Below are positions 36,716-58,697 of a DNA stretch of 64,000 nt, piece by piece. Both the position numbers and the translations under genes were made by a program. The stretch's first letter is position 1. Each line of letters opens with the position of its first letter. The DNA is from Eledone cirrhosa (lineage: Eukaryota): positions 1 through 64,000 of the forward strand of contig CAXHJY010001252.1 of NCBI GenBank assembly GCA_964016885.1, read 5' to 3'. The notes beneath the pieces were generated by a model. It did not search any database. It worked only from the letters and a program-made list of their open reading frames with translations, and was not told where the DNA came from.

Positions 36716-36910
36716 ATAGGAACCAGTAAGACCCCGACAGCTGAGCTCAAGCCGTTTCGACGGCTAATTCTGGACCAGAATTAGCCGTCGAAACGGCTTG
36801 AGCTCAGCTGTCGGGTCTTACTGGTTCCTATTACCCAGTCTACTACCTCAAGTATTGAGTACATTGGTGCGTTATGGTCCACCTGGTTCCTTACCACATT
36901 TCCTTCGTTA
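36716..36910 (+). mobile_element. Family H5 hairpin element (~195 bp)
   Basis: Palindrome 36716-36831 with axis 36774, then a tail ending ccttcgtta, inside (TA)n. Confidence 0.9.
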
Positions 36911-38068
36911 TATATTATATATATATATATATATATTATATATTATATATATATATATAATATATATATATATATATATATTATATATTATATATATATA
37001 TATATATATATATTATATATATTATATATATATATATATTATATATTATATATATATATATATATTATATATTATATATATATATATTATATATTATATA
37101 TATATATATTCTATATTATATATATATATTATATATATATATTATATATTATATATATATATATTATATATATATATATTATATATATATATATATATTA
37201 TATATTATATATATATATTATATATTATATATATATATATTATATATTATATATATATATATTATATATATATATATTATAAATTATATATATATATATT
37301 ATATATATATATATATTATATATATATATATATTATATATATATATATTATATATTATATATATATATATATATTATATTATATATATATATTATATATT
37401 ATATATTATATATATATATATATTATATATATATATATTATATATTATATATATATATTATATATATATATTATATATATATATATTATATATTATATAT
37501 ATATATTATATATATATATATATATTATATATATATATATTATATATATATATATATATTATATATTATATATATATATATTATATATATATATTATATA
37601 TTATATATATATATATTATATATATATATATATATATTAATATATATATATATATATATTATATATATATATATATATATTATTTATTATATATATATAT
37701 TATATATATATATATATCTATAATATAGAAATGGCTTCTACAGGACTAGAACTGTTTCATTCCAAAGAAATCATTGAGTACCTTACTTACTGTGGTTACC
37801 CCCCGATTGAACCCGGGACACACACACACTCACACACAGACGCAATATTTTATTACGTCAAGCATTGGATTGAGCATGGGACTATGTAGTCAGCAGATGT
37901 AGACAGTTATTGTACCGAAACACATGTTAAGGAATCAACTCTCAATAAATTCCTCCTTCCGACCAATTCTTCCTGTCTAGTTATTCCTGTTTTTCCTGGT
38001 ACCGTACTTATTATATACCTTATATATATATATATATATATATATATATATATATATATATATATATT

Positions 38069-38272
38069 TAACAAAGGAATTCTGGTAAGGAACCAGATGG
38101 ACCATAACGCACCAGAGTACTCAATACTTAGGGTAGTAGAGTGGGAAATAGGTAAAAGTATGACCCCGACGGCACAGCTCAAGCCGTTTCGACGGCTATT
38201 TCTGGACTCAGAGTCCAGAAATAGCCGTCGAAACGACTTTAGCTCTGCCGTCGGGGTCATACCTTTTCCTAT
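38069..38272 (-). mobile_element. Family H5 hairpin element
   Basis: Palindrome 38149-38272 with axis 38210, plus tail. Confidence 0.9.
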
Positions 38273-38943
38273 ATCTATATATATACATATATATATATAT
38301 ATATATATATATATATATATATATATATATATATATAAACAATGATGCATACACATTTGCACGCACGCGCACACACACATACTTATATATAGAATGTACG
38401 TGAGGATGTACGCAAAAGTATAAGAGCGATTTAATTACAAATATAGGAAACTAATATAGGTGCGGGTGCATATGTATGGTTATATATGAGTCAGTGAAAG
38501 AGTGTATAAATAGGAGAGGAGGCGTGTGTGTATATGGGAAGCTTATCTGTTCCGTTGTATTGATATATATACAGTGTTTTTATTTGTGTGATGTCGATGG
38601 CAGAATTGTATGTTATTTAAATCGTACAAGATATCGTGTTTGTATACAACACACATACTTTGTGTCAGGCATTATACTGTGTCTTATTGATACTTGTATC
38701 TGTAGAAAGTTACAACTCTCACCCCTCTCTGTTCTGGATTGTATTTAGTATGTGTACACATCAAAGTATGCACACGTGTGCGTGTTTGTTATTTCTGCTC
38801 TATCTAGGCATCATATGTGTGGTCTTTGATATTTGTAGGCAACAACATATATCTTTCTCATTCTATCTTCTGATAAATGACTAACGTCCGAAAAGTTATG
38901 GGACTTTTCTACTATTACTCAATAACTCTATTAGTCAAGTTAG

Positions 38944-39392
38944 TGAAAACGCATGGCTTAGTTGTTAGAGCTTATAATTGTGAGGTTGTGAGTTTGATTA
39001 TTGGACCGGGTTCTGCGTTGTGTCCTTGAGCAAGACACTTTATTTCATGTTGCTCGAGCCAGTTCACTCAGCTGTAGAAATGAGTTGCGACGTCATTTGT
39101 GCCAAGCTGTATCGGTCATTACCTTTTCATTAGATAACATATATAGTGTATATATAGTATATGAAGTGTATATATAGAATGGTTATATATGTTGTCACAT
39201 CCCTTATGGCAAGCTGTATCGGCCATTGCCTTTCCCTTGGACAACATCTGTGAATGAAGAGGGGAGACTGGTATACATGGGCGACTGCTGGTCTTCCACA
39301 AACAACCTTGCCAGGTCTTGTGCCCCGCAAGAGAACTTCTAGGTGCAACTCCCATAGTCATTCGTGACCGAAGGAGGTCTTTACCCTTACTT
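38944..39392 (+). mobile_element. SINE family B, long copy
   Basis: tRNA-like head ggcttagttgttagag..gagtttgatt, then caagacactttatttca..cagctgtagaaatgag, ending in a tttacccttac tail. Confidence 0.75.
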
Positions 39393-39397
39393 TATTA

Positions 39398-39802
39398 CGT
39401 GTTCTCCCCAACAGGCTGAGGCCATGCTGGGGCACCGCCCTTAATGCTACACTCTCTACAATATCGTGTTCTCCCCGACAGGCTGAGGCCATGCTGGGAC
39501 ACCGCCCTTAATGCTACACTCTCTACAATATCGTGTTTCCCCCGACAGGCTGAGGCCATACTGGGGCACCTCCCTTAATGCTACACTCTCTACAATATCG
39601 TGTTCCACTCGACATACTGAGGCCATGCTGGGGCACCGCCATTTATTCTACACTCTCTACACCATCGTGTTCCACTCGACATACTGAGGCCATGCTGGGG
39701 CACCGCCATTAATTCTACACTCTCTACACCATCGTGTTCCACCCGTCAAACTGAGGCCATACTGGGGCACCGCCATTAAAGCTACACTCTCTGCAATATC
39801 GT
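39398..39802. repeat. 66-67-bp minisatellite, 6 copies
   Basis: Unit gctgaggccatgctggggcaccgcccttaatgctacactctctacaatatcgtgtt. The core matches the reverse complement of 57387-57411. Confidence 0.9.
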
Positions 39803-39822
39803 CATTATACAGCTCTGGGGGT

Positions 39823-55337: not shown

Positions 55338-55516
55338 ATATATATATATATATATATATGTATGTATTTGTATATATATATATATATATATATATATATA
55401 TGCTGTATATATATGTATATATGTATATATATATGATGTATGTATGTATATATATATATATATATATATATATATATATATATATATATATATATATATA
55501 TATATATATATATATA

Positions 55517-55818
55517 ATGTTAACCTTGGTCTTCCTCTTCTAGTGTGTCCATGTAGGGGCTCCCAAAGGAGCACTGAGTGCAATGTCAACTCTGGATGTC
55601 GGTGAGCATGTCCAGCCAACCTCAGTCTCCTCTGTGTCACTTTTGAGCTGACTTTTGGGATGCTCCCATACAGCTCTGAGTTTTTCATCCTCAGTGTATG
55701 TGTTGATGCCCTAAGGACAGACACTGGTCTGTTGGAGATGCAGGATATGGCAGCGATAATGAGGGACAGAGACCGCTGGTGAGAACTCGTCCATGGATCT
55801 CAGGAATTTTACTCGCCT
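55517..55818. mobile_element. RTE-type LINE 3' end with 5' inversion
   Basis: 55517-55692 minus: [37 protein letters not shown]. 55696-55818 plus: VDALRTDTG.. Confidence 0.88.
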
Positions 55819-57162
55819 TAGATATAGATAGATAGATATATATATAATGTATATATATGTATATATATGTATATATGTATATATATATGATGTATATATA
55901 TATATATGTATATATGTATATATACATATCACACACACAGACACCCACACATATACATAGCCACAGACATACATAACTCAACATAGACCCTCCGACTTAC
56001 ACATACATTAACACAAAATATATCCACACACATACATATGCATAAACATACGCACCTACACACACACAAACACATCCATAAACATACACATCCATACCAA
56101 CACACACACACTCATAAACATACACATCCATACCAACACACACGCACTCATAAACATACACATCCATACCAACACACACCCACTCATAAACATACACATC
56201 CATACCAACACACACACACACACACACACACACACACACACACACACACACACACACACACACACACATAGACATACACATCTACCTCTATATACACACT
56301 CATAAAGATATACATCCACAGCTACGCATCCGCAGCAAAGGTATCCACATTTGAATACACACACACACACACACACACACACACACATCCACACCTACAC
56401 ACAACTTACTGAACACACACACGTATATGCACTCTCACACATACACCTAGACATACCTACACACACGTACATACTCTCTCTCACACACACATCCACACCT
56501 ACACACGTACATACTCTCTCTCACACACACATCCACACCTACACACAACTTACTGAACACACACACGTATATGCACTCTCACGCATACACCTACACACAC
56601 CTACACACACGTACATACTCTCTCTCACACACACATCCACACCTACACACACCTACACACGTACATACACTCTCTCACACACACATCCACACCTACACAC
56701 AACTTACTGAACACACACACACGTATATGCACTCTCACACATACACCTACACACACCTACACACACGTACATACACTCTCTCACACGCATCCACACCGAC
56801 ACAATCTCACACCTACACACGCGTACATACCCTCTCACACATCTACACACTCTCACACCTACACACACTCACACACACACCTACACACACACACCTACAC
56901 ACACCTACAAACACTCTCTCACACACACACAGCTACACATAATTTAAATAGATGTCGTTCACTATAGTCTATCATTGCTATGTTATGTGAGAATTGGCCG
57001 CAATATGGCGGATGGCTTCAATATGGCGGACTTTTGTAAACACGCTCGTCTCTCTGTGTTTGTGTGTGTGTGTGTGTATTTATATTTGTATATATATATA
57101 TATATATATATATGTATGTATGTATATTTATATATATATGTATATATATATATAAATATATT

Positions 57163-57253
57163 TAAGATCAAAAGATGGTTAAAGGAGTTCCATATATTTT
57201 ATTATGCGCATTTCAAAAACAAACATCATCATGCAATAATATTTGTGTTTTCA
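57163..57253 (-). mobile_element. Family H8 fragment truncated within the HHR core
   Basis: Matches 58833-58923 and stops at the TGA of CTGATGA. Confidence 0.85.
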
Positions 57254-57952
57254 CATTTGTGTATATATAAATATATATATATATGTATGTATATTTATAT
57301 TTATATATATATGTATATATATATAAATATATATATGTATGTATATTTATATTTATATATATATGTATATATATATAAATATAAATGCGGTGCCCCAGCA
57401 TGGCCTCAGCCGGATGGCTGAAACAGGTAAAAGAGTAAAAGAGTATATGTATGTATATTTATATATATAAATATGTATATGTATATATATATAAATATAT
57501 ATATATGTATGTATGTATATTTATATATATAAATATGTATGTATGTATATTTATATATATAAATATGTATGTATATATATTTATATATGTATGTATGTAT
57601 GTATATATATTTATATTTATATATGTATGTATGTATGCATATATATTTCTATTTATATATATATATATATATATGTATGTATGTATATATATTTATATTT
57701 ATATATATATGTATGTATGTATATATATTTATATATATAAATATGTATGTATATATATTTATATATATATGTATGTATGTATATATATTTATATTTATAT
57801 ATATATGTATGTATGTATATTTATTTAGATTTATATATATATATATGTATATATTTACATAAATGGATATTGTGTGCATATATATATATATATATATATA
57901 TATATATAGAGAGAGAGAGAGAGAGAGAGAGAGAGAGAGAGAGAGAGAGAGA

Positions 57953-58027
57953 GAGCGTGCAAAAAATGTATACACACTTCAACAACATTCTAATAAAAAT
58001 GTGTATCATATTTTGGGACACCCTGTA
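57953..58027. mobile_element. Tiny Tc1/mariner-type MITE remnant
   Basis: Right end ttttgggacaccctg-TA, with a degenerate inverted left end. Confidence 0.5.
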
Positions 58028-58527
58028 TCTCTCTCTCTCTCTCTCTCCCTCCCACTCTCTCTCTCTCTTCCTCCCACTCTCCCTATTATATATAGTTATA
58101 TATATATATATAAATATATATATATATATATATATATATATATATATATATATATATATATATATATATATATATATTACTGTAGATGTCCCACTGTGCA
58201 GCACACCTACAATATATAACCCAAGCCCGCCTCCATCACCAGCTATCCCACTCAAATTATAAAATGTTGCACATGGAGAACTGCACGCTATGCACAAATC
58301 ATGTGCAGAAATATGCATATAATTTTATGTGCATGAATATATGATCATACAAAGTTGTATATATGTATATATAATATATATATAATTTATATATATATAT
58401 ATATATATATATATATATATATATATATATAAATGAATATAAATTGTATGTGTATGCACATATGTGTTTGCCTGCATACATGCTTTTGTATTAACTTAAA
58501 TGTATATATGTATATATATATATATAT

Positions 58528-58697
58528 ATGGAAAAGTATGACCCCGACGGCAGAGCTCAAGCTGTTTCGACGGCTATTTCTGGACCCGCTTTGCCGTCGG
58601 GGTCATACTTTTTCCTATTAACCACTCTACTACCCTAAGTATTGAGTACTCTTGTGCGTTGTGGGCCATCTGGTTCCTTACCACACCTCCTTCGTTA
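58528..58697 (+). mobile_element. Family H5 hairpin element with deletion in the right arm
   Basis: ..gacggctatttctggacc|cgctttgccgtcggggtc.. plus tail. Confidence 0.85.

Follow-up and report, generated by a model that had tools for sequence, protein, structure and literature searches.

The window analysed here is a stretch of 64,000 nucleotides from Eledone cirrhosa (contig CAXHJY010001252.1, positions 1 to 64,000 of the forward strand). It contains six copies of a short repeat family, H5, in which a sense unit of ~140 nt (38208 down to 38071 in the copy near 38.2k) is preceded by an inverted copy of its own first 61 nt. The whole insertion spans ~190-200 bp, with a fixed 5' end and a one-sided tail of ~80 nt. 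This is the inverted 5' copy plus tail known from Penelope elements, for which head-to-head inverted pseudo-long terminal repeats (pseudo-LTRs), junction palindromes, a one-sided tail and a proposed self-priming have been described (Arkhipova et al. 2013, PMC3846280). Hairpin ends and self-priming, as set out in the preliminary description of this DNA, are thus not novel in themselves. The same layout and (TA)n targeting are reported for Penelope-like elements (PLEs) by Craig et al. (2021, PMC8557442), who ascribe the tail to endonuclease resolution. We suggest that H5 is a Penelope-type passenger whose mirror arm arises by twin priming on one RNA with a permuted hammerhead, a composite reading to which we give slightly less than an even chance.

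The H5 insertions and their arms

All six copies lie where they had been placed before, and in 6/6 an inverted, 5'-truncated copy adjoins the 5' end. The tail is found at one end only; in the numbering of the 38.2k copy the short end lies at 38148 and the long end at ~38070. The 36.7k copy consists of a tail-less mirror arm at 36716-36773 (- strand), whose outer end ATAGG adjoins (TA)n, and a full unit at 36775-36908 (+), divided into the tail-side arm (36775-36831) and the tail (36832-36908) with a mutated hammerhead core box at 36864-36871. At 38.2k, the full unit occupies 38071-38209 (-; 5' end ~38208, long end ~38070) and the tail-less mirror arm 38211-38272 (+). The motifs of this unit, all on the - strand, are GAAAC (38190-38186), GUC (38170-38168), the short-end CCTAT (38152-38148) and a mutated core box (38115-38108). 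Both arms carry an extra G directly before the usual 5' end (38209, 38211), which could, speculatively, be a copied RNA cap. The 44.0k copy has its mirror arm at 43989-44051 (-) and its full unit at 44053-44190 (+), with the mutated core box at 44146-44153. The outer end of this mirror arm adjoins an unrelated retroelement fragment, not (TA)n, and TAA is common to both; across the window, 11/12 H5 ends adjoin (TA)n or TA-rich sequence.

Three other copies remain. At 58.5k, a complete mirror arm (58528-58586, -) faces a shortened tail-side arm plus tail (58589-58695, +; mutated core box 58651-58658) that is devoid of GAAA and most of stem III; it is not a full hairpin. The old copy at 15.2k is a full unit of a divergent subfamily (15121-15253, -) with an intact core box, CUGAUGA-G, within its tail (15158-15165, -); its mirror arm (15256-15312, +) is near-identical to the tail-side arm in the inner 19 nt and diverged in the outer part. 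At 47.0k both arms are shortened, leaving a mirror arm at 47011-47028 (+) and a tail piece at 46966-47010 (-). Of the two breakpoints of this copy (46966-47028), one falls within 1-2 nt of where GUC cleavage is predicted and the other coincides with the first base of the mutated core box; one read joint (38112) also lies inside the core box. When the window was searched with a covariance model, no additional copy reached E<0.5, and there is no tandem H5 in it.

Mirror and tail-side arms of the same copy are alike, with 1/58 differences at 36.7k, 2/61 at 44.0k, 5/62 at 38.2k and 15/58 at 15.2k. Arms of different young loci differ at 5-11 positions, and young from old arms at 15-23. A tree of the arms joined them by locus at 36.7k (support 97/98), 44.0k (82/84) and 15.2k (91/96), and did not resolve 38.2k. 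Forcing all mirror arms into one clade was rejected by the approximately unbiased (AU) test (p-AU 2.7e-9, 4 vs 4 rows), which took 8 of the 11 arms and omitted both 58.5k arms and the 47.0k arm. Tree and clade test favour clustering by locus over clustering by side. The hairpin centre is different in every copy, in line with the per-copy loops noted earlier, and perfect hairpins with centres of 1-5 nt occur. Because the arms pair by locus and the centres differ, the arm is probably remade at each insertion, as the preliminary description had proposed.

Its second suggestion, that the arms are corrected afterwards, finds some support at one copy: the inner arms at 15.2k differ at 1/19 positions and the outer arms at 14/39 (Fisher p=0.012), which hints at later correction of the inner stem in the old copy. 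This contrast, together with the finding that shared variants are subfamily alleles, is also what can be said for a hairpin that each master element contains and that is copied whole, arm-to-arm conversion (quasi-palindrome correction) keeping the arms alike. Such a master hairpin has to contend with centres that differ in every copy and joints that vary widely, with the 38.2k arms, which still differ at five positions, and with the same layout in unrelated families of the window. We consider it decidedly unlikely.

Joints, ends and variants in sequencing reads

One arm plus tail (window 38062-38212, 80% likeness) was compared with four runs, of which X7 and X8 are other samples under the same species label and X4 is another organism. 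The family matches 18,297 contigs in X1, 22,383 raw reads in X7, 23,059 raw reads in X8 and 45 contigs in X4; H5 is very abundant. These read counts show presence, not frequency, and restriction-site-associated DNA (RAD) depth is biased, probably by AATT cut sites, with hairpins probably under-read. Sharp drops of RAD depth at 38078 and 38198-38201 coincide with AATT sites and are taken as probable enzyme bias.

ATAGG and CCTAT ends beside (TA)n are common across the genome (1,511 + 1,816 of the 22,383 reads in X7; 1,429 + 1,515 of the 23,059 in X8), which bears out that the mirror ends near the same CCTAT. Loose ends are often tail-less ends that adjoin (TA)n at 38148 or, in a subfamily whose spacer differs, at 38157; these rank among the most frequent (3,327/22,383 in X7). 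At least some of the variants that had been called copy-specific are subfamily alleles: in X1, 38199 T>A, the 'taattc' change of the 36.7k copy, accounts for 737k of a summed depth of 1,652k, X7 reads also show the 44.0k spacer beside TA, and 'aaaagtatg' is common to the 38.2k and 58.5k copies.

All figures on joints refer to the 15 that are listed out of 27. Every one of the 15 joins opposite strands. Three are near-symmetric (38204-38207) and occur in X7 and X8 raw reads and in X1 contigs, with 6-16 reads each, so the palindromes are present in raw reads as fold-back joints of the family. That this support is at family level and not per window locus, and that the symmetric joints are carried by so few reads each, is what could be held in favour of assembly or library fold-back chimeras. 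The recurrence of the same joints in contigs and in the raw reads of two runs on other samples, the locus-specific arm mismatches and the fixed outer end make an artefact extremely unlikely.

The other 12 of the 15 listed joints are lopsided: the tail-bearing piece ends at 38112-38171 and the other piece starts at 38196-38209. The start of this mirror piece lies at 38205-38209 in 10/12 and at exactly 38208 in 6/12. In two lopsided joints the short side reaches 61 and 55 letters at its longest, which corresponds to a complete tail-less arm. Among the 11 cuts at or below 38158, eight lie close to the short site, in 38134-38158 (post hoc, with a rough binomial p=0.014).

The lopsided joints bear on the snap-back route of the preliminary description, here moved to the RNA 5' end: a tail-primed complementary DNA (cDNA) would run off that end, fold back, copy itself and be resolved at CCTAT by the endonuclease or by microhomology. 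Perfect hairpins with such small centres are in keeping with this, as are the published proposals of self-priming for Penelope junction palindromes (PMC3846280) and of endonuclease resolution for the tail (PMC8557442). At the long-spacer loci 11.2k, 24.8k and 50.0k the start of the inverted arm lies within the tail-bearing strand, as expected under snap-back. The 58.5k and 47.0k copies and the 12 lopsided joints, however, hold mirror sequence that is absent from the tail-bearing strand. Plain snap-back is disfavoured because a shortened tail-bearing arm then needs a later deletion; on this route the lopsided copies would derive from later deletions at the hairpin tip. In addition, the short end of a PLE in vitro is a start site of the reverse transcriptase (RT), not a stop site (PMC11167929). 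We regard snap-back as unlikely, if not strongly so, and conclude that the lopsided copies favour twin priming on an RNA with a fixed 5' end.

A candidate hammerhead core in permuted order

The 3' half of H5 reads C-GAAA, a 4-bp stem III with a palindromic loop, and GUC. This GAAA-stem-GUC half motif is above chance (31/20,000 shuffles, and 1/20,000 when a 6-nt loop palindrome is included), with the reservation that the descriptor was composed after the motif was noticed. The half motif is hammerhead-like, as first described, and its palindromic stem III loop fits the palindromic helix III of PLE hammerheads (PMC4209133). The place of the other half had been seen differently: the mirror was thought to occupy the position of CUGANGA and thereby to destroy the ribozyme, and an intact type I parent with CUGANGA just upstream was predicted. 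Scans of five copies, covering stretches upstream and in the mirror, gave no CUGANGA, and the 30-nt loose-end consensus beyond the 5' boundary in the reads has none. The box likely lies ~55 nt downstream of the GUC site, in the tail, where the old copy has an intact core (CUGAUGA-G, 15165-15158), the only one among the six copies. In the five young copies core bases A6 and A9 are lost, so that the core has decayed through point changes, and these copies are predicted not to cleave. C3 is often changed as well (38115 G>A, 1,435k of 3,375k depth in X1), which suggests that there is no selection for cleavage in young copies at present.

A consensus fold of four copies by RNAalifold, made before the core was noticed, gave stem III and a helix that pairs the 5' end of the unit with the tail, the latter with two-sided changes in the old copy. 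The CUGAUGA-G of the old copy lies within 3 nt upstream of the tail strand of this helix. The probability of a core at that place by chance is ~0.0006 from composition; anywhere in the unit it is 613/20,000. When the permuted structure is drawn, 77/84 pair cells pair. As read from the sequence, the order of the H5 boxes is that of type II, or that of type I if they are read across the junction of a tandem or a circle. A permuted (type II order) hammerhead is unusual in animal repeats. We think it somewhat more probable than not that H5 derives from a real permuted hammerhead ancestor, with activity as a prediction.

Several observations weigh against this hammerhead. It rests on one intact core among six copies, and Rfam returned no hammerhead and two chance matches for the old copy alone; over the window, no hammerhead was among the best 150 of 602 Rfam matches. 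The permuted fold lies far above the minimum, at -16.2 vs -34.3 kcal/mol for the 38.2k copy and +1.7 vs -24.1 kcal/mol for the 15.2k copy. In the alignment, stem I has a pair probability of 0.00, inner stem II one of ~0.12 and stem III one of 0.18; RNAalifold predicts none of the three helices when the old copy is left out. The three two-sided changes all come from the old copy and are reached by 35/500 shuffles; the covariation is not significant, and the permuted structure was drawn from the same sequences that scored it. Taken by itself, the tail is no more stably folded than shuffled sequence (z -1.0 to +0.5).

A lax type II-order pattern matched four places in the window; at 26235-26340 (+) there is another GAAA-stem-NUH followed by CUGAUGA in type II order, with a folding z of 0.88, no better than shuffles.

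The scarcity of the core, present in 1/6 copies, would be explained if the CUGAUGA of the old copy had arisen by chance and H5 were no more than the end left by 5' truncation of a long PLE, with an ordinary type I hammerhead further upstream that an intron may divide. Some contigs have a shared AT-rich extension past the 5' boundary (143 contigs in X1, agreement 0.44; 2 contigs in X4, 0.95), which, judged by eye, ends like a 3' splice site, and the intron of Drosophila virilis Penelope ends at its hammerhead (PMC4209133). Within the window the upstream extension has one match against 1.03 expected, no more than chance. The 30 nt seen upstream have no CUGANGA, the direct joining of the mirror at 38205-38209 in most lopsided joints argues for a fixed end and not for random truncation, and a core beside a blindly predicted helix is unlikely by chance. 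A truncated PLE is thus quite improbable.

The fixed 5' end may reflect the start of transcription, a boundary set by splicing or a single turn of a circular RNA. The boundary could be read as initiator-like or as 3'-splice-site-like, in both cases by general consensus motifs and from a 30-nt consensus of low agreement. Penelope is known to have an internal promoter (PMC2377424). For the third option, H5 would be the DNA copy of a ~140-nt circular RNA with a type II-order hammerhead. A Penelope-type RT would open the circle in the stem II loop; primed from one strand of the target it would copy exactly one turn, and from the second strand a further 61 nt, writing the hairpin at each insertion. 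TTA is common to both unit ends, the 5' end is fixed, copies pass through the GUC site, and by eye the sequence beyond the 5' end resembles the unit's own 3' end. The ~140-nt unit is shorter than the animal retrozyme units described. We hold the circular template to be rather unlikely.

Proposed twin priming, neighbouring families and known systems

Twin priming finds its model in the purified Anolis PLE, for which both target strands are cleaved and extended and the RT starts at two internal sites that delimit the tail, with uncleaved RNA as template (Frangieh et al. 2024, PMC11167929). If the short end of H5 is likewise an RT start site, the mirror would be a cDNA for which the second target strand supplies the primer and the same RNA the template. 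Such second-strand cDNA would account for a CCTAT end that is fixed and has TA microhomology, for identical arms, for centres that vary and for lopsided copies. The putative RNA, with its 5' end near 38208, would fold as a circularly permuted hammerhead in the order stem II strand, GAAA, capped stem III, GUC, stem I with a long loop, CUGAUGA and stem II partner. To judge from PLE biochemistry, an RT/GIY-YIG protein would nick both strands of the (TA)n target. One nick would then prime cDNA at the far end of the tail; the other would anneal by TA microhomology at CCUAU in loop I and prime a second cDNA on the same uncleaved RNA. Both cDNAs would run towards the RNA 5' end and be joined head to head. 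If both are finished, a perfect hairpin with a variable centre results; if the tail cDNA stalls, a lopsided copy. What is observed is that both arms of a locus carry the same variants, that the mirror ends at CCTAT, that lopsided copies exist and that the two outer ends are fixed ~80 nt apart.

Against twin priming stands the nature of the joint data, with 15 of 27 joints listed. The asymmetry may be partly detection bias, because hairpin-rich fragments are probably under-read and a cut mirror under ~18 nt is invisible. Lopsided copies of this kind can also result when sequence is lost later from the tip of the hairpin. At 80 nt, the tail exceeds the 30-40 nt described. An autonomous partner of H5 was not found, the two open frames of the unit (sense and antisense) being without homologue in protein searches, and the likeness of H5 to the 3' end of the neighbouring retroelement is not significant (8/300 and 97/300 shuffles). 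Nor is that of the H5 tail to other families of the window (18 comparisons, best 8/300). A weak two-sequence match to a neighbouring frame (E 0.004) was discounted, and a second frame gave none; the left-flank frame of the 44.0k copy has no protein match at E<=0.001. Exact pattern scans gave 0 matches in viral contigs, 0 and 0 in metagenomes, and 0 and 1 in prokaryote genomes, the lone match being a 20-nt chance match in a bacterium.

The same layout is found beyond H5. Six other insertions of the window, from five families, have an inverted tail-less arm that ends at a TA-compatible motif. In the two families with a second full locus, where arms can be compared by locus, they are again alike within a locus (6/224 and 1-2/201 differences vs 18-19/157-174 between loci; 2/130 vs 10-15/119-127). 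Two of the five families carry ordinary type I-order cores. One family, at 24383-25377 and ~49640-51018, has an intact type I-order core in a partial tandem and an inverted arm without the ~50-70 nt tail; the 6/224 and 1-2/201 belong to it. A hammerhead-bearing family at 10865-11332 has an inverted 130-nt arm (the 2/130 above) and a tail of ~40 nt, with relatives at 6441-6731, 27403-27487 and 48851-49110. At 58827-59253 there is a near-perfect palindrome with 170-bp arms, a type I-order core in both arms (long stem II, by eye) and a tail of ~85 nt. Further palindromes are centred inside a CUGAAGA box followed by GAAA, with a short tail (18567-18711), or have ~88-bp arms, a 9-nt loop and a tail of ~83 nt with no hammerhead core seen (11372-11639).

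The retroelement-like 3' fragment beside the 44.0k copy (42919-43987, -) has a minimal type I-order hammerhead near 43050, and its cut 5' end adjoins the mirror arm; it has no Pfam match above cut-off and no protein match. Pfam matches above cut-off in the window are one RVT_1 fragment (27369-27965, -) and GIY-YIG fragments at 29174-29623 (-) and 44237-44710 (+), the latter domain without link to H5. The window also holds a ~190-bp family resembling short interspersed elements, of ~85-95% identity (1086-1278, 12979-13176, 19170-19358, 21639-21963, 55157-55336 and 61491-61686), and tandem minisatellite arrays at 13543-14916, 19932-20972 (~72 bp units) and 39398-39802 (~67 bp units).

For the origin of the inverted ends of Penelope elements, still an unsettled matter, the proposals are self-priming and resolution by the endonuclease; the in vitro work does not extend to these ends. 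H5 is tiny and very abundant, with both arms within one sequencing read, so that counts of junctions in one genome can separate twin priming from snap-back. If the permuted core is true, it would be a type II-order hammerhead that has multiplied in the genome of an animal, a setting in which the hammerheads of repeats are described as almost exclusively type I. It would also suggest that searches with type I descriptors miss a class of PLE ribozymes, perhaps with the 'half-core' cases of Naiad elements among them. We found no paper in which Penelope ends are explained by twin priming or a PLE is said to have a type II hammerhead, within a search of open papers and, among supplements, that of PMC8557442; the excerpts of PMC12910113, PMC6155905 and PMC8782182 contain nothing to the contrary.

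With endonuclease-bearing (EN+) PLEs, H5 shares the head-to-head inverted end, the palindromic junction, the one-sided extension, (TA)n targets and hammerhead motifs (PMC3846280, PMC8557442). It differs in having no linked open reading frame, a whole insertion of only 190-200 bp, a fixed 5' end, a tail of ~80 nt instead of 30-40 nt and permuted core boxes; the type I hammerhead of a pseudo-LTR is not found in H5, which has no CUGANGA in the upstream sequence scanned. The Anolis Poseidon element PAc in vitro agrees with the proposed route in its two tail-delimiting RT starts, the nicking and extension of both strands at AT-rich DNA and the uncleaved RNA template (PMC11167929). Inverted copies are unaccounted for in the excerpts of that work, and we infer its application to the mirror arm. 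Overall, H5 behaves like a non-autonomous PLE passenger and resembles non-LTR retrozymes, whose repeats of 150-450 bp stand in tandem and bear type I hammerheads, and for which circular RNA has been demonstrated (Cervera and de la Pena 2020, PMC7229834; Li et al. 2026, 10.64898/2026.07.22.740005). Common to both are short non-coding hammerhead-bearing units that are tied to PLEs and occur as many dispersed monomers. In contrast to retrozymes, H5 consists of single units with an inverted arm and is known from DNA alone; tandem type I units are not seen, either in the window or among the listed joints, all of opposite strands.

Type II hammerheads are described in bacteria and archaea, and the vast majority of hammerheads in eukaryotic repeats are type I (Perreault et al. 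2011, PMC3088659). The candidate in H5, as drawn, matches type II in box order, in capped stems I and III with an open stem II, and in the very short proximal stem II that is tolerated there, and departs from it by its weak stem I and the lack of an Rfam match. The closest precedent within PLEs is the 'HHR_half_core' of Naiads, with core halves far apart and on either side, in elements of which at least one targets (TA)n; the spacing there is 35-50 nt, and a fold is not proposed in the excerpts at hand (PMC8557442). Five H5 motifs were not found by exact match in the supplement text of that paper, in which long runs are cut. The novelty of H5 is lowered because such split half-cores had already been noted for some Naiads. 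In LINE-1 twin priming there is hardly any overlap between the two pieces, and the position of the inner priming site is variable. H5 is unlike this case in that its inner site is fixed and the overlap can be complete. The two systems have in common that two cDNAs are made from two target strands on one RNA and leave a 5' inversion (10.1101/2024.12.14.628481).

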